Source: a virus
Lineage: Duplodnaviria > Heunggongvirae > Uroviricota > Caudoviricetes
IMG/VR virus record: IMGVR_UViG_2571042372_000005
Strand: one strand, 5' to 3'
Length of the DNA: 16,037 nucleotides
Both the position numbers and the translations under genes were made by a program. Numbering within the stretch: the first letter of the stretch is position 1; each line of letters starts with the position of its first letter. Below are positions 1 to 10,786 of this stretch, piece after piece. The notes beneath the pieces are model-generated. The model saw only the letters and a program-made list of their open reading frames with translations. It was not told the DNA's origin and did not search any database.

Positions 1-384
1 GAAACGACATTTGTGCTGGATGCTCTGGAGCAGGCGTTATGGGCCCGTCGACCGTCCGGCACGGTCCATCACAGTGATAAAGGTTCTCAGTATGTATCGC
101 TGGCCTACACACAGCGGCTTAAGGAAGCCGGATTACTGGCATCAACAGGAAGTACAGGCGACTCGTATGACAACGCGATGGCGGAGAGCATCAATGGTCT
201 TTACAAAGCGGAGGTAATACACCGTAAGAGCTGGAAAAACCGTGCAGAAGTGGAACTGGCCACACTCACGTGGGTGGACTGGTATAACAATCGACGATTG
301 CTGGAAAGGCTGGGCCATACTCCTCCGGCAGAAGCAGAAAAAGCTTATTATGCTTCCATCGGAAACGATGATCTGGCAGCCTGA
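1..384 (+). CDS. IS629 OrfB transposase (DDE integrase core), 5'-partial at window edge
   Basis: Frame open from base 1 ([31 protein letters not shown]...), same C-terminus as the complete OrfB at 5282..6172; stop at 382..384. Confidence 0.9.
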   Translation, partial: ETTFVLDALEQALWARRPSGTVHHSDKGSQYVSLAYTQRLKEAGLLASTGSTGDSYDNAMAESINGLYKAEVIHRKSWKNRAEVELATLTWVDWYNNRRLLERLGHTPPAEAEKAYYASIGNDDLAA

Positions 385-426
385 GTTCACAGATAAAACA
401 CTCTCCAGGAAACCCGGGGCGGTTCA
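1..426 (+). mobile_element. IS629-like (IS3 family) insertion sequence, copy A, partial: only the 3' 426 bp lies in the window
   Basis: 1..426 matches the reverse complement of 5240..5665 with 2 synonymous substitutions in the stretches compared by eye; ends in the terminal inverted repeat ...CCAGGAAACCCGGGGCGGTTCA at 426. Confidence 0.9.
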
Positions 427-1193
427 ATACGGGAGAACTCATAACCGCAGTCATGACATCTGCCGGAATAGTTCGATTGAATTTGTTTTAGCGCCGGATA
501 CAGTTCGCGGAATAATGCCTGTGAGCGGTTGGCATAATCCCATAGCCATACAAGGCTGTTTGCTTCTTTTGCAGAAAGCTCGTTGGTTTTCTTCTCTTGT
601 TTGCCGATGAACTCACCTTCAAGCACTACCCTGTGGATGTACTCTACTGCTTGTGGTATCTGAGATGCATCAAGCTCTTCAATACTTTCCACATTGAAAC
701 GCTGATGAATCATTGCATAAGCTTCTGGGTACATTAGATGCTTTTTGCTGACTAGCATATTTACAGCATCACGAAGCGGAGTCCTGTCATCAACAGATGT
801 TTTCTTCCGTGCATTTGCTGCCTCTCCCTTTGTCCAGTAGTCATGCAGCACAGTAAAGCATTCTTCCTGGTACTGAATCAGTTTATCGCGGATGTCAGCA
901 CGAACTTTCTCAGGGTTGATGCTGAACAGCCATCCATTTAACTTCTTCAAAGGAAGGCAGAGTAGCTTACGAAGCTTACCATCAGCGGCAACCATGTTCA
1001 TATGAACACAGTTGAATTTGCTAATCTGCTTCATGAGTTTTGTTTGCTGCGTTGACCAGCTCATTCCGAGGTTTTCAACGATTGGCTTCATCGCAACATA
1101 TGCAACTCCGGCAGCCATGGCGGTGATAATTTGCTGACCGTTGAATGGCACGTAAGAGGTGTTCACTGCTTCTAAAATTGCTATACTATTCAT
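427..1193 (-). CDS. ant: Phage antirepressor (Ant-like), 3'-truncated by IS629 copy A
   Basis: ORF 387..1259 reads on into the IS inverted repeat, so the native stop is missing. Likely start is ATG at 1193 ([10 protein letters not shown]...) behind GGAGAAAA; an upstream in-frame ATG at 1259 is the alternative. Position downstream of an Arc-like gene matches P22 immI. Confidence 0.55.
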
Positions 1194-1425
1194 GTTGGTT
1201 TTTCTCCACGGATTTACCGACAACCGAAGCCCTGACTGTTCCAGCAGTTGGGGCTTCACTGTTTTGATTTCTTTGCCGCATCAAGCATCACTTCTGAAAA
1301 CGTGCGCTTGCCACTGAATACTCTTTCTCTTCTCAATTTTTCGTTCGTGCCAAATGATTCGCCATGAACAAAATTTGGTCTTAAAATGGTAATCGCAATC
1401 TCTTTGACTACTGCATCCAAGCGAA

Positions 1426-1578
1426 TCACACCGTTACCCCCTCTCTCTTCAGGCTGTCTATCAGGCGCTTGATAACCTCTGAGTTAAACGACCTGCACTC
1501 TTCCTTTGCCCTGCTACCGATAGCATCCTTTAACGACTGCGGCATCCTTACCAAAATCTTACTTATTTCTTTCTCCAT
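1426..1578 (-). CDS. arc: Arc-like ribbon-helix-helix repressor (50 aa)
   Basis: MEKEISKILVRMPQSLKDAIGSRAKEECRSFNSEVIKRLIDSLKREG resembles P22 Arc as recalled (RS-NSE core, KxEG tail); GGAGGG 5 nt before the ATG at 1578. Confidence 0.7.
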   Translation of the reverse strand: MEKEISKILVRMPQSLKDAIGSRAKEECRSFNSEVIKRLIDSLKREGVTV

Positions 1579-1692
1579 GTTACCCTCCACGCAAACAACT
1601 CTTTTCGAATACAAAAGATAGCAAAGTGAGTATATCTAGTCAAAATTTTTTTGCATACACTTTGCTATCAAATTGAATACCAAAGGTGTTAT
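1579..1692. promoter_or_regulatory. Divergent arc-ant / mnt control region with a 12-bp perfect inverted repeat
   Basis: GATAGCAAAGTG (1617..1628) and CACTTTGCTATC (1658..1669) separated by 29 bp; TTGACT -35-like hexamer on the - strand at 1638..1643; TTGCAT at 1650..1655 on the + strand. Confidence 0.5.
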
Positions 1693-1941
1693 ATGGCAAA
1701 GGGTGTGTCAATTTCTCCAACTACGGTAAGAATCCCTGAATCTTTACGCGAGGCTCTTGCTGTCAGAGCATCAAAAAATGGTCGCTCTGTTAACTCCGAG
1801 ATCGTCATGATTTTGCAAGCCGCGATTGATGAAGATAGGTCGCCAAAGTCAGTTGAGTCATTTGCTCAGCAAGAAGCTGATAAATTCAAAGAGGCGCTAC
1901 TTGAGACGCTAAAGACCATGTATGCTAAGGATGAAAAATAA
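1693..1941 (+). CDS. mnt: Mnt-like ribbon-helix-helix repressor (82 aa)
   Basis: VRIPESLREALAVRASKNGRSVNSEIVMILQAAI matches the Mnt/Arc RHH core (NGRS-NSE); C-terminus ...LKTMYAKDEK resembles P22 Mnt as recalled; divergent from arc. Confidence 0.75.
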   Translation: MAKGVSISPTTVRIPESLREALAVRASKNGRSVNSEIVMILQAAIDEDRSPKSVESFAQQEADKFKEALLETLKTMYAKDEK

Positions 1942-2477
1942 TGCTGCACACAATTCATTTCTTATGCCCTGTTAACACTGCCACTGTTGGGCAACTTCAG
2001 AACCACTGTCTCACCGCATTATCTCAAGGCGCAACTGAATTAAATATCCATATATCAAGTCAGGGAGGGGAAACTGCTGCTGGCTTTACTGCGTATAACT
2101 TTCTTAAGTCACTCCCTGTTACCGTTAGAACTCACAACATAAGCAATGTTGAATCCATAGCTAATATCGTTTTCCTGGCTGGCTCAGAACGTTTCGCAAA
2201 CCCATTATCAAGATTCCTGTTACATCCTCTATTATGGTGCTTTGCCTCCCCAGCCGCCGACCATGCCAGATTGAGAGAGTACGGGAAATGCCTCGATAAC
2301 GATCTTGATCGCTTCGTTGAGACGTTCAATATCGACATCGGAACCCATATTAGGTGGGCATCCCTGATAGCAGACTCGACCATTTTGGATGCTAACAAGG
2401 CTCTTGAGCATGGCATAATTAATTCCATAAAAACTGCAAGGCTGGCATCCAATCAGGCAAACTGGTGGGTTGTTTGA
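1941..2477 (+). CDS. ClpP-fold (S14/S49-like) serine peptidase homologue lacking the ClpP N-terminal region
   Basis: By-eye alignment to E. coli ClpP: IHISSQGGETAAGFTAY vs INSPGGVITAGMSIY; VESIAN Ser aligns with the GQAASMG catalytic Ser; RF-NPLSRFLLHP vs RFCLPNSRVMIHQP keeps the His; a later Asp (ADSTILD) is a candidate third residue. Start ATG overlaps the mnt stop (TAATG). Confidence 0.6.
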   Translation: MLHTIHFLCPVNTATVGQLQNHCLTALSQGATELNIHISSQGGETAAGFTAYNFLKSLPVTVRTHNISNVESIANIVFLAGSERFANPLSRFLLHPLLWCFASPAADHARLREYGKCLDNDLDRFVETFNIDIGTHIRWASLIADSTILDANKALEHGIINSIKTARLASNQANWWVV

Positions 2478-2503
2478 TGGGTAAATCATGATTACTCCTT
2501 ATA

Positions 2504-2527
2504 AAAAACCCACCTGACGGTGGGTTT
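2504..2527. terminator. Intrinsic terminator between convergent genes (possibly bidirectional)
   Basis: AAAAACCCACC-tgac-GGTGGGTTT hairpin; on the - strand it follows the 2526 stop and is followed by a T-run. Confidence 0.7.
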
Positions 2528-2975
2528 AGTCAAACATAGTGTTTCTAAAGTCTCTCGCATACCCTGCTAACACTCTCATTCTATTATGATTGTTAGCAGA
2601 CATGTGAGCTACAGGATGAAAAAGAGCAATCAATGAATACCTGTTCTCATCAAAAAGATTTTGTGCATAAACGAGAGCGGTATTGGATGTTTTATGCCAC
2701 TGCAACTTTTGCGGTGTGCTGATATCTGTGCCATTTTTTATTGGCTCAAATTTATTTTCACCAATTGCTAAATGAAGGTGCATAAGGCCTGCATCTTCAA
2801 TATCAGGAGGTCGATGATAAGAGGTGTCTCTGCCAAAATAGCTGGGCAACGTTCCCGTAGACTTGTAGATGATAAAATCATCTACAAGTGTTTGTTTTAA
2901 ATCAGGAAACTCAACAAAAACCGGGGAGAAAAAATAGTCAAAACTATCCTGATTATATTCCACGGTTACTTGCAT
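2526..2975 (-). CDS. yafO: YafO-family toxin homologue (149 aa)
   Basis: Matches E. coli YafO as recalled: DFIIYKSTGTLPSYFGRD vs DFISYKRDGVLPDIFGRD; HLHLAIGEN vs HIHLANENN; ALVYAQNLFDE...LIALFHPVAHMSANNHNRM vs HLVYCQGAFDE...LIAILKPEPHKLARDNNQM. GAGG SD; starts 8 nt after the upstream stop. Confidence 0.65.
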   Translation of the reverse strand: MQVTVEYNQDSFDYFFSPVFVEFPDLKQTLVDDFIIYKSTGTLPSYFGRDTSYHRPPDIEDAGLMHLHLAIGENKFEPIKNGTDISTPQKLQWHKTSNTALVYAQNLFDENRYSLIALFHPVAHMSANNHNRMRVLAGYARDFRNTMFD

Positions 2976-2983
2976 GTTTTACC

Positions 2984-3550
2984 TCAGTGGAAGTTACCAG
3001 AGTGAAACACACGAGTCCCGTGCTCAGCAAGCGCACGCAAACCAGCCATATCTACGGAACTATCAAAAACAACCGGAACACATGAGCGTTGTTTAATAAG
3101 ACTATTCAGGTTGGTTACGGCAGATCTGGCATCAGCAACAACGATATAGATATCTCTTGCGATCTCTTTAAAATCAGCAGAAGCTTCTTTGAATACCGAT
3201 TTCATTGCCCCTTCAAGTCCTCTCAATTGATGCTCTATCAATCGAGACTTTTCTGGTTCAATGATAGACAACACATTGTCTACATTCTCATCGGTAGCGT
3301 TTGCAAGAACACGATAAGCGTATTTCAGCATTCGAGACAATTCTTTAATCGAAGACACCGCCTCATGAAGCTCATCATTAGCCCGTTCACTGCTGAATGA
3401 GGATTGATGGTAAGCGTGCTGAACGTTATCAGTAACAACCACCTCACAACTGAACGCAGAAGCTTGCTGTAATAGCAAACCTATTGCGACTCCAGCTTTG
3501 GCAGCGTTCAAGCTAAACATTTCATCAATCCCATTAGTCTCATTGCTCAT
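2984..3550 (-). CDS. Hypothetical 188-aa protein encoded immediately upstream of the YafO-like toxin; putative non-canonical antitoxin/partner
   Basis: AAGGAGG SD before the ATG at 3550 (the ORF-track start at 3580 lacks an SD); no RHH/HTH or YafN/Phd-like motif recognisable; same operon as the toxin. Confidence 0.5.
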   Translation of the reverse strand: MSNETNGIDEMFSLNAAKAGVAIGLLLQQASAFSCEVVVTDNVQHAYHQSSFSSERANDELHEAVSSIKELSRMLKYAYRVLANATDENVDNVLSIIEPEKSRLIEHQLRGLEGAMKSVFKEASADFKEIARDIYIVVADARSAVTNLNSLIKQRSCVPVVFDSSVDMAGLRALAEHGTRVFHSGNFH

Positions 3551-3725
3551 ACAAACCTCCTTCTTATCGGAGATTATCAATAGCTATGCATCCATTGAAT
3601 ACACGCTATGCGCAATAAGTTTACGTCACGTGATATCATTATGCAACCACCGTTCTATCACCGACTAACTTTACTCCCACTCCTATACATCATCTGGTAT
3701 CCTGCGCAAAACTAAGGAGGTTGGT

Positions 3726-4076
3726 GTGAATGCTCAGTCTGTCATCATGGTTTTCCTTGGGCTGATTGTCGCAAAACTATATCCAGACTGGTGGAAAGGG
3801 GCATTAGCTACTGTCGCCATCTATTTGCTTTTATCCATCGTTAAGCGATCACTCGCTGAGACCGTAAATCAAGCAAAACGTTTCTCATTTAAGAGTTTAA
3901 TAAACTATGTTACTGGGCTTATTTTTTGCCTTTCAATTCTGATCGCTTCGGCTTTTTTGCCCGTATCAATAGCTAATTTTTTTGGCGCACCATATGAGGT
4001 AGGTTATCTATTCTCTGTTTCCTGTCTTGCCATTGCTCTTCTTTACCTGTGGACGAGATCAAAGAATAAAAATTAG
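3726..4076 (+). CDS. Small integral membrane protein (116 aa, 3-4 predicted TM helices); GTG start
   Basis: AAGGAGG (3714..3720) 5 nt before GTG at 3726; hydrophobic stretches VIMVFLGLIVAKL, ATVAIYLLLSIV, LIFCLSILIASAFLPV, YLFSVSCLAIALLYLW; sits at the P22 sieA-equivalent position. Confidence 0.6.
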   Translation: MNAQSVIMVFLGLIVAKLYPDWWKGALATVAIYLLLSIVKRSLAETVNQAKRFSFKSLINYVTGLIFCLSILIASAFLPVSIANFFGAPYEVGYLFSVSCLAIALLYLWTRSKNKN

Positions 4077-4093
4077 CCATCCGTGGCTGCCAG

Positions 4094-5239
4094 TTATTGA
4101 GCTTCTTTTTGTGATGCCTGTGCGACTCTGGTGAGCGATTGTGTGACCGTACTGATCGCTCTGTCATATGCTGTGCTACCTTTTGGCGTATTTGCCAGAC
4201 GTAACAAGGCATTTCGTATAACAGGGCTTTCGTATGCCTTCGCAGCTCCTCCTACGACACCAGCAGCAGGAACAACAAACGCAGCCGTTTTTAGCATCCC
4301 CGCTAATACTGCTGCGTTTATGATGCCACCACCAACTAACAATCCATAAAGCTGCTGACCATTTAAGTTTTGAACGTTCGCTTTTGCCGCGTGTCTTGTA
4401 TCGTTGAGGTATTTAATAACGCCGTCCAGTTCCTTTCCATGTACGCCTTTAAAGAAAGTTGCTGATTGCTTCCTGTTCCGGTGTAACGCATTAATAAACT
4501 TTTCAACACTAATATTTCCAGACGGATCAGTCGCCTTATCTACAGCATTCTGAACTATGGCTGCTCGTGCGTTTTGCCTACCATTGTCATCCAGAAGCCT
4601 GTAAAGCTGAGAACGTTCTGATGGGTTTTGGCTAAAAACGAGTTTTGTTACATCCTCAGGTGTAGCCTTGCCGCTGGCTATTGCCTTTTGAACGCGCGTT
4701 CTTCCCATCATGTCATTGAATCTAGCCCATGAGCGATCAACCCTAGACATATTGGCAGCTTCTTCTGAGCCTAGTTTTTGGGATACTGCTTTTTTCATAT
4801 CCGCTGTATATGCCTTGTAGACAATATCGCTGGCTTTCTGGAGCGTGTCTTTATCAACAGTCTCGTTTGAATTCATGAACCGCTTTCGAAGGTCAGTTCT
4901 GTTTTCTCTCGCCAGACGCAGGTCATTGGGTCCGCTGGTGATATCGTCTTTAAATTGCTGCAAGACTTTTACCGCGGCTCTATCCTGAGATTTGCCCGGG
5001 CGGCTTAACACGGCAATCTGATTGTCGATAGCTTTTACCGTGTTTGAGAGATCGACAGGGGTATCCCCCATAGCGTCAATTATGCGGTTATATCGCTTTC
5101 CTGCTGCCTCAATGAATTTTTGTTGCCCTTTAGTCGCAGATTCATAAAGCTGTTTATCAGAAATGCCACCCAGACCATCGCTAAATGTTCTGACTAAATT
5201 TTCTCGTGCTTGTTGTTGATTCAGCCGATTCTTACCGGT
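4094..5239 (-). CDS. 5'-truncated phage structural-type protein, possibly an ejection/internal virion protein; N-terminus replaced by IS629 copy B
   Basis: The reading frame is open from the IS junction at 5239 down to the stop at 4094, beyond the first ATG at 5071; C-terminal hydrophobic Gly/Ala-rich segment. Function is inferred from position only. Confidence 0.4.
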   Translation of the reverse strand, partial: TGKNRLNQQQARENLVRTFSDGLGGISDKQLYESATKGQQKFIEAAGKRYNRIIDAMGDTPVDLSNTVKAIDNQIAVLSRPGKSQDRAAVKVLQQFKDDITSGPNDLRLARENRTDLRKRFMNSNETVDKDTLQKASDIVYKAYTADMKKAVSQKLGSEEAANMSRVDRSWARFNDMMGRTRVQKAIASGKATPEDVTKLVFSQNPSERSQLYRLLDDNGRQNARAAIVQNAVDKATDPSGNISVEKFINALHRNRKQSATFFKGVHGKELDGVIKYLNDTRHAAKANVQNLNGQQLYGLLVGGGIINAAVLAGMLKTAAFVVPAAGVVGGAAKAYESPVIRNALLRLANTPKGSTAYDRAISTVTQSLTRVAQASQKEAQ

Positions 5240-5265
5240 TGAACCGCCCCGGGTTTCCTGGAGAG
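5240..5265. repeat. IS629 terminal inverted repeat (orfB-proximal end)
   Basis: TGAACCGCCCCGGGTTTCCTGGAGAG; partner at 6524..6549. Confidence 0.8.
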
Positions 5266-5281
5266 TGTTTTATCTGTGAAC

Positions 5282-6172
5282 TCAGGCTGCCAGATCATCG
5301 TTTCCGATGGAAGCATAATAAGCTTTTTCTGCTTCTGCCGGAGGAGTATGGCCCAGCCTTTCCAGCAATCGTCGATTGTTATACCAGTCCACCCACGTGA
5401 GTGTGGCCAGTTCCACTTCTGCACGGTTTTTCCAGCTCTTACGGTGTATTACCTCCGCTTTGTAAAGACCATTGATGCTCTCCGCCATCGCGTTGTCATA
5501 CGAGTCGCCTGTACTTCCTGTTGATGCCAGTAATCCGGCTTCCTTAAGCCGCTGTGTGTAGGCCAGCGATACATACTGAGAACCTTTATCACTGTGATGG
5601 ACCGTGCCGGACGGTCGACGGGCCCATAACGCCTGCTCCAGTGCATCCAGCACGAATGTCGTTTCCATGGACGATGAGACCCGCCACCCCACGATGTATC
5701 CGGCAAACACATCAATGATGAACGCCACATAGACGAAGCCCCGCCATGTGCTGACGTAAGTAAAATCAGCCACCCACAGCTGGTCAGGTCGTTCTGCCAC
5801 GAACTGACGGTTTACGCGGTCGCCTGCGGCAACGGCTTTCCGGCTGATGGTCGTACGGACCTTTTTACCCCGGAGAACACCGGCAAGTCCCATAACCGCC
5901 ATGAGACGTGCCACAGTGCATCTGGCCACTCTGATACCTTCCCGTAACAACTGACGCCAGACTTTACGCACACCGTATACCTTGTGATTTTCATCGTATA
6001 CGCGCTGTATCTCTTTCTTCAGCCAGTCATCGCGCTGCGCACGGGCACTGCGTTTATCCGGATGATGTCGCTGTTGCTGACAGTGGTAATACGTTGACGG
6101 GGCAATATGCAGTTCGCTGCATAGCGGTCCGACCCCGTACTGCTCACGCAGCTTATCCAGCAGTGGCATCAT
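5282..6172 (-). CDS. IS629 OrfB transposase (DDE integrase core)
   Basis: 296-aa ORF in the -1 frame relative to orfA; IS3-family catalytic-core-like sequence ([10 protein letters not shown]...[15 protein letters not shown]). Confidence 0.9.
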
Positions 6173-6495
6173 TTTTTCCAGAGGCGGTCGAACTCCGCCT
6201 TCGCAAAATAAGCGGAAGCCTGGCGAAGGATATCGTTACTGCGGCGCAGTTCACGATTTTCACGTTCCAGCTCTTTCAGACGCTGACGTTCAGCGGTGGT
6301 GAGCCCTCCATCACCGCCCCCGGTATCCCGCTCATGCTGGCGAACCCAGACACGCAGAGTCTCCGGCGTACAGCCAATCTTTGGAGCAATGGAACAAATT
6401 GTCGCCCATTGTGAGTCATATTCGCTCTGACTTTCCAGAACCATACGGACTGCCCGTTGACGGACTTCGGGGGAAAAACGAGTATTTTTAGTCAT
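6169..6495 (-). CDS. IS629 OrfA (HTH/leucine-zipper transposase N-terminal protein)
   Basis: 108 aa, [21 protein letters not shown]...; ends in the A-run GGAAAAAATGA that overlaps the orfB start, the usual site of -1 frameshifting in this family. Confidence 0.9.
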
Positions 6496-6523
6496 CCTGT
6501 TTACCTCTTTCTCAGGAAGTTTA

Positions 6524-6549
6524 GTCTCCAGGATTCCCGGGGCGGTTCA
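6524..6549. repeat. IS629 terminal inverted repeat (orfA-proximal end)
   Basis: Reverse complement reads TGAACCGCCCCGGGAATCCTGGAGAC. Confidence 0.8.
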
Positions 6550-7705
6550 TGATGATTGAGTCTGCGTCCTGTTCAATGCTTCCTGAATCACGCAAATCTG
6601 CGTTTGTCGGGCGTTTGTTTGGTCGCTTCTCAACATCGCGTGAAAGCTGACTCAGGGAAATAACCGGTGTTTTCAGGTCTTTCGCCATCGCCTTCAGGCT
6701 TCCGGAGATGTGAGCAATTGCGAGGTCGTTGCGGTCTGCTTTCGGCTTCTCAATCAGGCCAAGATAATCCGCCATGATGAGTGAGAGGTTTGGATTTTCC
6801 TGTTTGTGCCGTTCTGCGATTGAGCGTATTTCTTCGACCGATAATCGCGAGGCATCGACTACCCATACATCCAAATCTGCAAGCTGACTCATGCCGTTAG
6901 CAACACGTGCCCAGCCCTCGTCATCCATCGATGCAGGATTTCGCAGTACGCTAACCGACATCCTCCCGGCGTTGGCAATGCTTCGCTCTGCAATCTGCAA
7001 TGCGCTCATTTCCATTGAGAAAATCAATACCCCGCGCCGGACGTCAGAACCAGGAATAACGCGGCTTGCAACGCCTTCGGCAATCTTCAGCGCCAGTTCG
7101 GTTTTCCCCATACCAGGACGAGCAGCGATTATCACCAGGTCTTCCGCGTTCATCCCTCCGGTGATGGCATCAAGTTCTTCGATTCCGGTCTTCAGGGTAT
7201 CGGACTCTTCTCCGTTCCTCAGACGCCTGTCAAGCGTGTCAGTGTAGTCGGTGATGATTTCCCCTAACCGTACAGGTTTAACCTCGTCACGGGGCTTTCT
7301 GATGGCTGAGAGACGTTTTACAAGTTCATCCATCGCCTGACTCGATGCGTCGATGGTTCCGCTTTGGATTGGTTCACGCATTTCATCCATGATTTCCAGC
7401 ACCAGACGGCGGTGATAGTTATCCGCGACCATTCCGGCATATCCCTTCAGGTTTGCGGCGCTCGGGCAGTTTTTGCTGGTCATCAGGATTGACGTGAAAT
7501 GCTCCTCTCCGCACGCCTCGGCAACCATCAGCGCGTCGATTAGGTTTCTGTTTCTCGCCTGCTTCCGGATAACCTCGAAGGCTTTCCGGTAGAGCGGAAT
7601 TGAAAACGCTTCCGGCTCCAGCGTTGCAAGAACGTCACTGGCGGTTGGAGTTAATCCACCAATCAGCAGGCCACCGATAACGCTCGCTTCGATATCCTGT
7701 CTCAT
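6550..7705 (-). CDS. DnaB-family replicative helicase (P22 gene-12-like), 3'-truncated by IS629 copy B
   Basis: Walker [12 protein letters not shown]; DnaB C-terminal motifs [36 protein letters not shown], after which the frame runs into the IS inverted repeat; about 45-60 C-terminal residues missing by comparison with E. coli DnaB. Start ATG overlaps the upstream stop (ATGA). Confidence 0.85.
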
Positions 7706-8649
7706 GCAATCCCCCTGTCTGCAAACTTCCCTTCCCGAACTCCCGTTAACGAGTCTTCTCTCAGCAGGTAATCAAAATCAGCCGTCCAGCCCGTGTCGTT
7801 GTCTCCGAAGTAAAACGGCTTGGCCTGATGCACAAACGCCCTGACATACGCTCTGAAACCGTCCACGTTTGGCGTTTTCAGTTGCGGGATGATTTTCTTC
7901 AGGCGGCGTTTTCGTTTCTCGTTGACCGCAACAGCGTGTGGCAGTCTGTCACCGACTTCGGTGTTGTAGGCGTTCAGGAAGGATTCGTAGTCGATTCGTT
8001 CTGCCTTGCGACGTTCAGGTTTAACCTGCCCATCGCCTCCCCCATTGGGGGGTAGGGGGGTATTATTTATATTCTTGTTAATACCTTCTTGTTCATGATG
8101 TGCGGTTGTTTGTGCGGCTTCATGTGCGCTTTCATGTGCGGCATGTACGCTGAAAGCCGCGCTATTGCTGGCTTCATCATGTGCGGCATCATGTGCGGTT
8201 GTTTGTGCGGCTTCATGTGCGGGTAAATTGTCCATTTTTTGAGCATATTCATGGTAATTTGTGATGGTTATCACACGGCCTTTTTGCTTCTCTCCATCAA
8301 TGGAGATCATCCCCTCTTTCACAAAAACCTGAAGCATCCGCTCAACCTGATCACGGCTTGCTGGCTTGCCATGTCTGTCGCATAACTGAAGACCTAAATC
8401 AGCTGCTGTCACAACCAGTTGACCGGGTTGCAGATGCCATTCATGACCTTTGAAATTCGCTTTGTATGGCTTTCTGGCGGCATTCAGGAGAAGGTTTTCC
8501 CACAGGGTGCGAAGATAAACATCTTTCGCCCATGACTGTTTCAGAATGCTCCGGTACAACGGAATGTAACCAGTTTTCTGGTTCTCCATCCTGTTGCTCC
8601 TGCGCTCGTGTGCGGCGCTGAAATCGTAGATTTTTGCTGTATTGCTCAT
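7702..8649 (-). CDS. Replication initiator (lambda O / P22 gene-18-like) containing the origin iterons
   Basis: N-terminus [10 protein letters not shown]... recalls lambda O (MTNTAKILNF...); internal reiterated [10 protein letters not shown] peptide corresponds to DNA iterons; translationally coupled to the helicase. Confidence 0.7.
8055..8222. repeat. Putative phage replication origin: two clusters of 12-bp-period iterons (8094..8222) with an adjacent AT-rich stretch (8055..8093)
   Basis: (C/T)ATGTGCGG repeated about 9 times; a 35-bp unit is near-perfectly duplicated (8094..8128 and 8187..8221); the AT-rich stretch lies downstream in the direction of O transcription, as in lambda ori. Confidence 0.6.
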
Positions 8650-10476: not shown

Positions 10477-10786
10477 AAAGAGTAGTTGGCTTTGGGGTGA
10501 CGTGAAGTGCAGCTGCACGACGGCAACCGGAAGATAAGCACCCGGCGCGTCACCGCCAAAGTCAATTCCATAGGCGTTATGCAGCCGCCACCATATTCAA
10601 GAAAGCTGCACAAGAGGTAGGAGGATTTATGTGAATGCATAACTTCAAAACCGAGGTTAATTAAATCTCTCGATCCGAGCATCGACCTATTAGGTGGCGA
10701 GATGCTCTTTCTGCCCCTCAGTTCGAGGGGCCAGAAACCACTTTGCAATCACTATCAATTCCAAAGTTGTTTCATCGGAGGTCAAC

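Follow-up and report, generated by a model that had tools for sequence, protein, structure and literature searches.

Two copies of IS629 face each other across 4.8 kb of immunity and toxin genes in the window, the whole 16,037-nt stretch of viral DNA analysed here. This geometry raises the question of whether the pair and its cargo form a mobile unit or an invertible segment, or whether the arrangement has another origin. We consider it very probable that the two copies are the scars of two deletions in a CUS-3-like prophage that has decayed through IS629. The segment surviving between them is native to the prophage and has flipped in at least one relative.

The locus is a CUS-3-like prophage at argW

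The window belongs to a CUS-3-like, P22-like prophage that sits at argW in K1-type extraintestinal E. coli, is specific for the K1 capsule and carries neuO. King's 2007 work is said to have placed the CUS-3 neuO prophage at argW-dsdC. In the genomes of relatives, the window is placed between argW-intS and torI-dsdC, and it matches AH20K059, AHB12 and B20123 save at positions 12 and 24. The (AAGACTC)n tract of neuO lies in the left flank, just outside the window, with 38 heptamers in AH20K059 and 9 in GCA_964046725. The tailspike gene also sits to the left of the window and is annotated as an endosialidase in FY26 and BEN5202.

CUS-3 integrates at argW-dsdC, and CUS-3-like phages are prone to decay, often losing structural genes (PMC9659370). 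CUS-3 and the prophage studied here have in common the argW-intS...torI-dsdC site, a P22-like gene order, an endosialidase tailspike and, in neuO, a contingency tract of heptanucleotides (PMC9659370). Sequenced phages carry a different cargo between mnt and gp16. Window positions 427-5239 are covered to at most 44% by the best record in the phage collection.

Both IS629 copies are full-length and apparently functional

Copy B (5240..6549, minus strand) is a complete 1310-bp element, with its IRR at 5240 and its IRL at 6549. On the same strand it encodes orfB (5282-6172; 296 aa) and orfA (6169-6495; 108 aa), and an RNA family match places an ALIL frameshift pseudoknot at 6098-6214 (120.2 bits). 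PGAP labels the two frames with "programmed frameshift", and their products carry the HTH_Tnp_1, HTH_21, rve and rve_3 domains. The terminal inverted repeats are both intact and imperfect. They start TGAACCGCCCCGGG and match at 30 of 40 terminal positions, the first 14 being identical. The length fits the ~1310 bp of IS629, and 1304 of 1310 positions (99.5% at the nucleotide level, against a 95% threshold for assignment to IS629) are identical to an element annotated "IS3 family IS629" in phage Stx2_499 (LC567824).

Repeat and IS alignment identify copy A (1..426, plus strand) as the 3' 426 nt of the same element (IS coordinates 885-1310), that is, the orfB end and the IRR. The inverted repeat in the window spans 1-427 and 5239-5665, the extra base at each end being a chance match. 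The IRR/orfB ends of both copies point inward, with the coordinates and orientations that the original prediction had given. That prediction had also proposed extending the sequence leftwards to look for the outer end of copy A. In the source scaffold and in relatives copy A is full length, with an IRL that adjoins a 208-nt remnant of the tailspike gene and with no target-site duplication. Both copies are full-length and apparently functional.

In the window, two synonymous differences separate copy A from copy B: positions 12 and 24 read T,T in one and C,A in the other, and the 100% identity given by the repeat search is a rounded value. The earlier reading took these as a sign that the duplication was not very recent, a conclusion that we reject. 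A 100-N gap in scaffold KI929791.1 (GCA_000522365.1) ends 1 nt before the window, so that the variant bases lie at a contig end in a collapsed repeat. In the contig across the gap, variant bases are confined to the final 17 nt and fall on IS positions 881 and 896. All three variant bases agree with an IS629 isoform of 96% identity. Copy A is identical to copy B in 9/9 gap-free relatives with the sequence checked. Because these closed relatives carry identical copies, the two differences cannot date the copies; they are due to an artefact of assembly or to a patch of conversion and do not represent divergence.

The enclosed segment is native prophage DNA

The segment between the copies begins with ant' (427..1193, minus strand), a P22-type antirepressor gene with P22_AR_N/C domains from which the final ~136 nt are missing. 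The open frame continues into copy A up to position 387. It is followed by the sar antisense RNA of the immI region (1194..1260, plus strand; Rfam RF00262, 83.9 bits). Next come a 57-aa frame from the ORF list between arc and ant (1256..1429, minus strand), which has no family match in annotation or domain search, and arc itself, encoding an Arc-like RHH repressor (1426..1578, minus strand). A mnt-like gene for a second Arc/RHH repressor (1693..1941, plus strand) completes the region; annotation and domain search support both repressor genes. The gene order and the sar RNA, arc, Mnt-like RHH and Ant P22_AR_N/C features are those of P22 immI (mnt-arc-sar-ant). The difference is that ant here has lost its 3' end to IS629.

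Beyond mnt, the position of sieA in P22 holds a ClpP-like gene, a YafO module and a gene for a small membrane protein. The ClpP-like gene (1941..2477, plus strand; CLP_protease domain) is a moron. The YafO-family toxin gene (2526..2975, minus strand; PF13957, YafO_toxin, 78.9 bits) has an upstream partner of 188 aa (2984..3550, minus strand) without a family match in annotation or domain search. The ORF list and annotation place the small membrane protein (109-116 aa) at 3726..4076 on the plus strand. The last gene before copy B is a pseudogene of gp16, the P22 ejection protein (4094..5239, minus strand), which keeps its 3' 1146 nt and has lost its 5' 867 nt. Apart from sar and the 57-aa frame, these are the genes that the original prediction had listed between the two copies, down to the truncated virion gene. 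On the far side, copy B is flanked by a DnaB-type replicative helicase gene (6550..7705, minus strand) without its 3' ~221 nt. When the ClpP-like, YafO, 188-aa, membrane and 57-aa proteins were run through PADLOC, no significant match emerged; its sole hit, a weak ZorA match (E = 0.004), is regarded as chance.

Over its inner 4,815 bp, the segment matches the intact S88 prophage at 100% identity and in the same gene order. It is evidently surviving phage DNA, made up of immI and the morons between mnt and gp16, and was not imported.

Each copy replaces a block of prophage genes

The prophage of strain S88 served as the reference for the deletions, as a proxy for the ancestor rather than the ancestor itself. 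Against it, copy A stands in place of ~2,974 bp, which held the 3'-terminal ~136 nt of ant and the endosialidase tailspike gene almost in full. For copy B the missing stretch is ~20,130 bp, from the 5' part of gp16 through the 3' end of the helicase gene, and every gene for head, packaging and lysis has gone with it, as have Q and the nin genes. The flanks of each copy are colinear and on the same strand in S88, giving the junctions 17027/IS/20002, where position 20002 is the ant'/copy A junction, and 24814/IS/44945. The outer flanks of the whole IS-segment-IS unit are ~27.9 kb apart in the S88 prophage.

Neither copy is flanked by a target-site duplication (GTC/ATA at copy A, GGT/TGA at copy B), while simple IS629 insertions in sister prophages have duplications of 3 bp. 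The deletions account for this absence. The two copy B junctions each fall 1-2 bp from an independent simple IS629 insertion in the homologous gene of an unrelated strain (gp16 in ETEC1731, the helicase gene in O157:H7 BB24-1), as genuine insertion junctions would be expected to do.

How the large deletions arose is suggested by a third IS, in repO. In GCA_014140775 and GCA_964044125 this IS has the duplication AAG and the orientation of copy B, and GCA_964039765 carries the exact junctions of the recombined product (46711/IS/24814). FDAARGOS_1301 was considered as an instance of the same deletion as GCA_964039765 and was rejected, its repO junction being 2 bp away.

Based on this case, we propose the following pathway. 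The two IS629 copies would have arrived in the prophage by independent insertions of opposite orientation (step 1). A second IS629 in the same orientation would then insert nearby, and homologous recombination between the direct copies would delete the DNA between them (step 2). Recombination of this kind would leave one intact IS without a target-site duplication. Direct-copy recombination is most likely for both large deletions, judging by the repO example. The identical 1.3-kb inverted repeats, 4.8 kb apart, allow host homologous recombination to flip the segment, as has happened in at least one sequenced relative (step 3).

The deletions could instead have been made directly by the IS629 transposase acting from one IS end, possibly aided by the IS-excision enhancer IEE, a possibility that we hold to be real although clearly the less likely one. 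A passage of PMC9943667, citing Kusumoto 2011, documents adjacent deletions of a few nt to >40 kb for IEE with IS629. One-ended, transposase-mediated adjacent deletion would give identical junctions. The deletion end points also vary by lineage on both sides of each IS, with the IS and its orientation retained. Moreover, searches with the outer junctions found no precursor with two direct IS copies for either of the large deletions (2,974 and 20,130 bp); they matched only the same lineage and near-coincident independent insertions. AH19K002 was tried as a precursor and rejected, since its IS near the helicase gene sits between ninB and a downstream gene, off the junction. Against a transposase-made deletion, the repO step, the only one for which both states are seen, is an insertion followed by direct-copy recombination, and both copy B junctions lie at sites of independent simple insertions. 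IEE events, furthermore, typically excise the IS itself, whereas both copies here are intact.

The unit does not behave as a composite transposon

The original prediction offered two behaviours for the pair, a composite transposon or a substrate for inversion by homologous recombination. For the first, both IS629 copies and the intervening 4.8 kb would make up one mobile unit of 7.4 kb that moved, or could move, via its outer IRL ends. Only geometry speaks for it, namely two complete, near-identical inverted IS copies around a toxin/immunity segment, much as in Tn10/IS10 and Tn5/IS50, where two inverted IS copies surround a few kb of non-IS genes. In contrast to Tn10 and Tn5, this unit has no duplication and no second location, and its cargo is in its native place. 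The outer flanks share no duplicated bases (..ATCAGTC before the unit, TGATGAT.. after it). Flanks and cargo are colinear parts of one prophage, the cargo matching S88 without a difference.

IS3-family transposition normally pairs IRL with IRR, but both outer ends here are IRL. All occurrences of the unit, 4 among RefSeq complete genomes and 11 among long contigs, are at argW, and plasmid and phage searches returned no plasmid record and no phage record with at least 80% of the 4.8-kb segment. We therefore regard movement as a unit as highly improbable. The inverted pair came about as a by-product of two distinct histories, each of insertion and deletion. The part of the original prediction concerning a transposon falls with the missing duplication and the single location, and the part concerning inversion stands on GCA_964046725.1. 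A search of other genomes for 427..5239 flanked by IS629 in the opposite orientation, which it had also suggested, found the segment only at argW, and flipped between its IS629 copies in that assembly. Of the findings that it had named as unfavourable, copy A proved to be neither truncated nor lacking its outer repeat, while the segment did always occur in the same context.

The segment has inverted in a sister genome

In GCA_964046725.1, located by exact-protein look-up, the four junctions are re-paired as 17027(+)/IS/24814(-) and 20002(-)/IS/44945(+). The tail remnant is thereby joined through an IS to gp16', and ant' through an IS to helicase'. The inner 4,813 nt are the reverse complement of window positions 427..5239, and inverting AH20K059 in silico reproduces the assembly exactly over 8,756 nt. 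This one assembly supports the IS629 pair as a substrate for inversion by homologous recombination. The inverted state was found in none of 5,426 RefSeq complete genomes, of which only 3-4 carry this IS629 pair, with a 3,310-nt query consisting of the ant' flank, the whole IS and the helicase flank. A shorter junction query of 600 nt (IS end plus flank) was uninformative for inversion, because identical IS copies put each inner junction in both orientations; it matched the gp16'/IS junction and revealed ETEC1731. Inversion, together with deletion, is also seen at another inverted IS629 pair of this prophage (BEN5202 versus FY26).

These features are those of RecA-type inversion between inverted IS copies, with an exact reciprocal exchange in identical 1.3-kb repeats and both orientations among isolates. 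Compared with IS-pair inversions in general there is nothing distinctive, the segment being small (4.8 kb) and inside a dead prophage. The flip is probably neutral.

Two further explanations of the inverted pair are scarcely credible. In one, intramolecular replicative transposition of a single IS629 would have produced an inverted second copy and an inverted segment in one step. The copies are identical in closed relatives, and an inverted pair is the classic product of such an event. However, the segment has the orientation of the intact prophage in the window and in 14/15 assemblies, the two deletions are left unexplained, and a passage of bioRxiv 10.1101/2023.06.07.543989 describes IS3-family transposition as copy-out-paste-in, not cointegrate-type replication. 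The other, a programmed switch in which the orientation of immI and the toxin genes is regulated and has a phenotype, would fit the natural occurrence of both orientations, but annotation and domain search reveal no site-specific invertase gene within the segment or next to it, entire IS elements form the repeats, 1 of ~15 assemblies shows the inverted state, and IS copies insulate both sides so that inversion alters no promoter-gene connection.

Decay by IS629 and what is retained

The two deletions have left the prophage grounded, unable to replicate or form virions. The decayed prophage keeps intS/torI, neuO, the immunity genes and the ClpP-like/YafO morons. Ooka's 2009 work reportedly described IS629 insertions and IS-mediated deletions in O157:H7 prophages. 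Similar events in O157:H7 prophages are given by Rump 2011 (PMC3271280). The element is the same there, as are the preference for prophage DNA, the inactivation of genes and the deletions beside a retained IS. In contrast to those cases, the host here is K1-type extraintestinal E. coli, the target is a CUS-3-like P22-type prophage, and sister genomes directly record a deletion step and an inversion. The literature describes the decay of CUS-3-like prophages without a mechanism, whereas the scars here are IS629 copies.

Two side observations concern the distribution of insertions and losses. At four sites, IS629 insertions are only 1-4 bp apart, namely the 5' end of the ClpP-like gene, gp16, the helicase gene and repO. 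These coincidences are independent, in unrelated strains, and involve both isoforms and both orientations. The core of ClpP-like, YafO and membrane-protein genes, and neuO, were never lost to the deletions that approach from both sides.

The overall pattern is ordinary prophage decay, which is already known biology. We think it unlikely that strong IS629 target hot spots in genes of P22-like and lambdoid prophages, combined with toxin-penalised loss, make this a semi-directed domestication of the prophage and not random erosion. Such target hot spots, if true, are so far undescribed.

The importance of the locus beyond careful bookkeeping is slight, with a deletion step and an inversion documented in sister genomes. 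It cautions that an inverted IS pair around genes does not amount to a transposon without a target duplication or a second location, and that single-base differences between repeat copies near the ends of draft contigs are unfit for dating those copies. For the biology of these prophages, the locus is a clear sequence-level case of one IS family grounding a prophage while the host retains neuO, the immunity genes and the toxin module.

Two IS629 copies in a CUS-3-like prophage

The window is identical to scaffold KI929791.1 of GCA_000522365.1 and, except at positions 12 and 24, to E. coli AH20K059, AHB12, and B20123. In these four genomes the locus lies between yfdC-tRNA-Arg(argW)-intS and torI-dsdC. 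Close to the window, on its left, lie two features: an acyltransferase gene that carries a long (AAGACTC)n tract, and a tailspike gene of which the last 208 nt remain. Relatives annotate that tailspike gene as an endosialidase. The argW site, the acyltransferase gene, and the tailspike remnant match the neuO-carrying, K1-specific, P22-like CUS-3-type prophage, which is located at argW-dsdC and has been described as 'prone to decay' (PMC9659370; PMC13001214). The neuO heptanucleotide tract has 38 copies in AH20K059 (~10500-10770 of the fetched locus L001) versus 9 in GCA_964046725 (~3570-4283 of L023), genomes that are otherwise near-identical. Between strains, the acyltransferase gene is annotated at lengths from 336 up to 1050 nt. 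Both kinds of variation fit a contingency locus already known to be phase-variable.

A repeat scan found a single long inverted repeat in the window, 1-427 versus 5239-5665. Reading of the ends and direct comparison of the copies place copy A at 1..426 (+) and copy B at 5240..6549 (-), with the right inverted repeats (IRR), the orfB ends, pointing inward as originally predicted. Copy B is 1310 bp long with TGAACCGCCCCGGG at both termini, encodes orfA (108 aa) and orfB (296 aa), and contains the ALIL frameshift pseudoknot (6098-6214; Rfam, 120 bits). It is identical at 1304 of 1310 positions to an element of phage Stx2_499 annotated 'IS3 family IS629', so the assignment to IS629 is correct. Genomes carrying the pair have 13-21 chromosomal places each that match the IS end.

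Each copy replaces prophage DNA

IS-free versions of the prophage occur in S88 and many other strains (APEC O1 and further genomes), with the gene order intS, neuO, tailspike, ant, arc, mnt, ClpP-like, YafO, membrane protein, gp16, gp20, gp7, head, portal, terminase, lysis, Q, nin, helicase, repO, cII, cro, cI and so on. We placed 80 nt from either side of every IS on the S88 reference. The junctions map to 17027 and 20002 for copy A and to 24814 and 44945 for copy B, and all four flanks keep the strand and order of S88. Each copy therefore stands in place of prophage DNA. At copy A the missing stretch is ~2,974 bp, nearly all of the tailspike gene plus the 3'-terminal ~136 nt of ant. At copy B it is ~20,130 bp, running from the first 867 nt of gp16 through all morphogenesis, lysis, and late-regulation genes to the 3'-terminal ~221 nt of helicase. 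Both sizes are accurate to ±1 nt because one base is common to the IS end and the flank. No target-site duplication is present at copy A (GTC/ATA) or copy B (GGT/TGA); simple insertions of this IS in sister prophages (E10, FY26, GCA_014140775, CP041526, and O157 BB24-1) have clean 3-bp duplications.

The inter-copy segment (4,815 bp) matches S88 at 100% identity. Open reading frames, annotation of relatives, and a domain search bear out the predicted gene content: truncated P22-type ant, arc, a gene for an Mnt-like RHH protein, a ClpP-like gene with a Clp-protease domain (5' end at ~1941), a YafO-family toxin gene with an upstream gene for a 188-aa partner, a gene for a small membrane protein, and the 3' 1146 nt of the gp16 ejection-protein gene, cut off on its 5' side at the 5239/5240 junction. 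Between arc and the truncated ant lies a full-length sar antisense RNA (1194-1260, +; Rfam RF00262, 83.9 bits), so the immI regulatory module is intact except for the C-terminus of Ant. PADLOC and Pfam returned no function for the 188-aa YafO partner or the membrane protein. To the right of copy B, within the Phage_rep_O replication-protein gene, 8094-8221 contains four direct repeats that resemble iterons (CATSATGTGCGG..-type units, 35-nt register), where phage replication probably starts.

The segment between the copies is inverted in one related assembly

The pair had been proposed as a substrate for inversion or as a composite transposon, and only the first proposal is supported. A whole-IS query with flanks found the inverted state in 0 of 5,426 RefSeq complete genomes. 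An exact-protein look-up turned it up in GCA_964046725.1 (L023), whose left IS joins 17027(+) to 24814(-) and whose right IS joins 20002(-) to 44945(+). The inner 4,813 nt is the reverse complement of window 427..5239, 8,730 nt on the right side equals the window from 6550 on, and AH20K059 inverted in silico matches L023 exactly over 8,756 nt. Barring an assembly error, L023 is exactly what reciprocal recombination within the two inverted IS copies would produce. The inverted state accounts for 1 of 11 long contigs, or ~1 in 15 with the RefSeq genomes added. A comparable event is seen at another inverted IS629 pair of this prophage, in BEN5202: a 3-bp duplication (18877-18879) has been divided between the two copies and the enclosed tailspike fragment is inverted relative to FY26, with an extra 1.6-kb deletion.

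As for a composite transposon, no shared duplication flanks the whole IS-segment-IS unit, whose outer flanks are ~27.9 kb apart in the intact phage, and the DNA enclosed is the phage's own, in its original place. The junction between the IS and truncated ant is carried by only 4 RefSeq complete genomes and, in a larger assembly collection, by 23 contigs (11 of them >1 Mb); every locus fetched from the >1 Mb contigs is at argW. At least 80% of the inter-copy segment was found in no plasmid and no phage record searched. By the criterion first set for it, that the context is always the same, the composite-transposon reading fails.

Origin of the deletions

GCA_014140775 and GCA_964044125 have the arrangement of the window plus a third IS629 in repO, oriented like copy B and flanked by a 3-bp duplication (46711-46713). 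In GCA_964039765 the junctions are exactly 46711|IS|24814, and the helicase remnant and half of repO are gone. Judged by these junctions, GCA_964039765 is the product of recombination between the direct repO copy and copy B, with the states before and after both visible. A near-identical deletion in FDAARGOS_1301 has a junction 2 bp off and is a separate event.

By analogy with repO, each large deletion would have followed from a nearby IS629 insertion in the same orientation and recombination between the direct copies; the 2,974-bp and 20,130-bp deletions probably arose this way. Consistent with this route, each copy B junction has, 1-2 bp away, an independent simple IS629 insertion in the homologous gene of an unrelated strain: ETEC1731 for gp16 and O157:H7 BB24-1 for helicase (duplication CAT). 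A two-copy precursor of the large deletions was searched for and none was found. One-ended adjacent deletion, associated with transposase or IEE, is a less likely source of the scars; it is documented for IS629 (PMC9943667) and would leave identical scars.

In other lineages (AH19K002, Eco_23-2678, FDAARGOS_1300, MS8345, E12053, and E10), this prophage carries IS629 at other positions and its deletions end elsewhere; it has thus been hit repeatedly. In the tailspike/ant region of AH19K002 (L006 5427-5452), 26 nt of the IRR end recur, unchanged, immediately after the IS, followed by the flank seen in Eco_23-2678; this duplicate looks like the remnant of an IS629 inserted into the end of another. 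B20123 has a third IS629 copy in intS joined to emrK (L004 12001-13310), indicating inversion of the whole remnant plus dsdCXA-emrY, and E12053 (L015 13518-14827) has a deletion from the gp7-like gene to within dsdA. Both are larger IS629-mediated rearrangements of the same locus.

Independent IS629-family insertions lie 1-4 bp apart at four places, in unrelated strains, both isoforms, and both orientations (fetched loci L007, L010, L011, L015, L019, L022, L024, and L027). These are the 5' end of the ClpP-like gene (window ~1941; S88-reference 21541-43, 21542-44, and 21544), gp16 (5239/5240; 24810, 24811-13, and 24814), helicase (6549/6550; 44943-45 versus 44945), and repO (~8320; 46711-13 versus 46713). 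No target consensus among these sites was apparent by eye.

Differences between the copies

The two copies had been judged not to be a very recent duplication because of synonymous substitutions. The differences are present at positions 12 and 24 and are synonymous (TTT/TTC, Phe; GCT/GCA, Ala), but they do not support the age inference. The window starts 1 nt past a 100-N scaffold gap inside copy A (KI929791.1, L021). The contig across the gap ends in the same IS, with variant bases confined to its last 17 nt (IS positions 881 and 896). At both contig ends, bases of another isoform occur only in the terminal 17-24 nt, a pattern typical of collapsed repeats in draft assemblies; the three variant bases (881, 896, and 908) agree exactly with a 96%-identical IS629 isoform found, for example, in E10, and adjoining diagnostic sites on both sides have the common state. 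Copies A and B are identical in all nine gap-free relatives whose sequences were checked. The best reading of the differences is that a repeat collapsed where a contig ends, or at most that a short conversion patch is present, and they carry no information on the age of the copies.

A decayed prophage with a retained core

Among about 10 junction states examined, deletions come near the core of ClpP-like, YafO, 188-aa partner, and membrane-protein genes (window ~1941..4300; S88-reference 21544..23869) from both sides and none enters it. Likewise, all of the decayed variants examined retain neuO. Possible causes are toxin-antitoxin addiction, selection, and, given the small sample, chance. The consistent survival of this core and the recurrent near-coincident IS629 sites, the latter because IS629 target specificity has been called unknown in published work (PMC3271280), are the only mildly unexpected features, and neither is established. 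At this locus a CUS-3-like prophage has been grounded and bears two IS629 deletion scars. None of its components or processes is new: prophage targeting by IS629, deletion and inversion mediated by IS elements, and decay of CUS-3-like prophages are all known.
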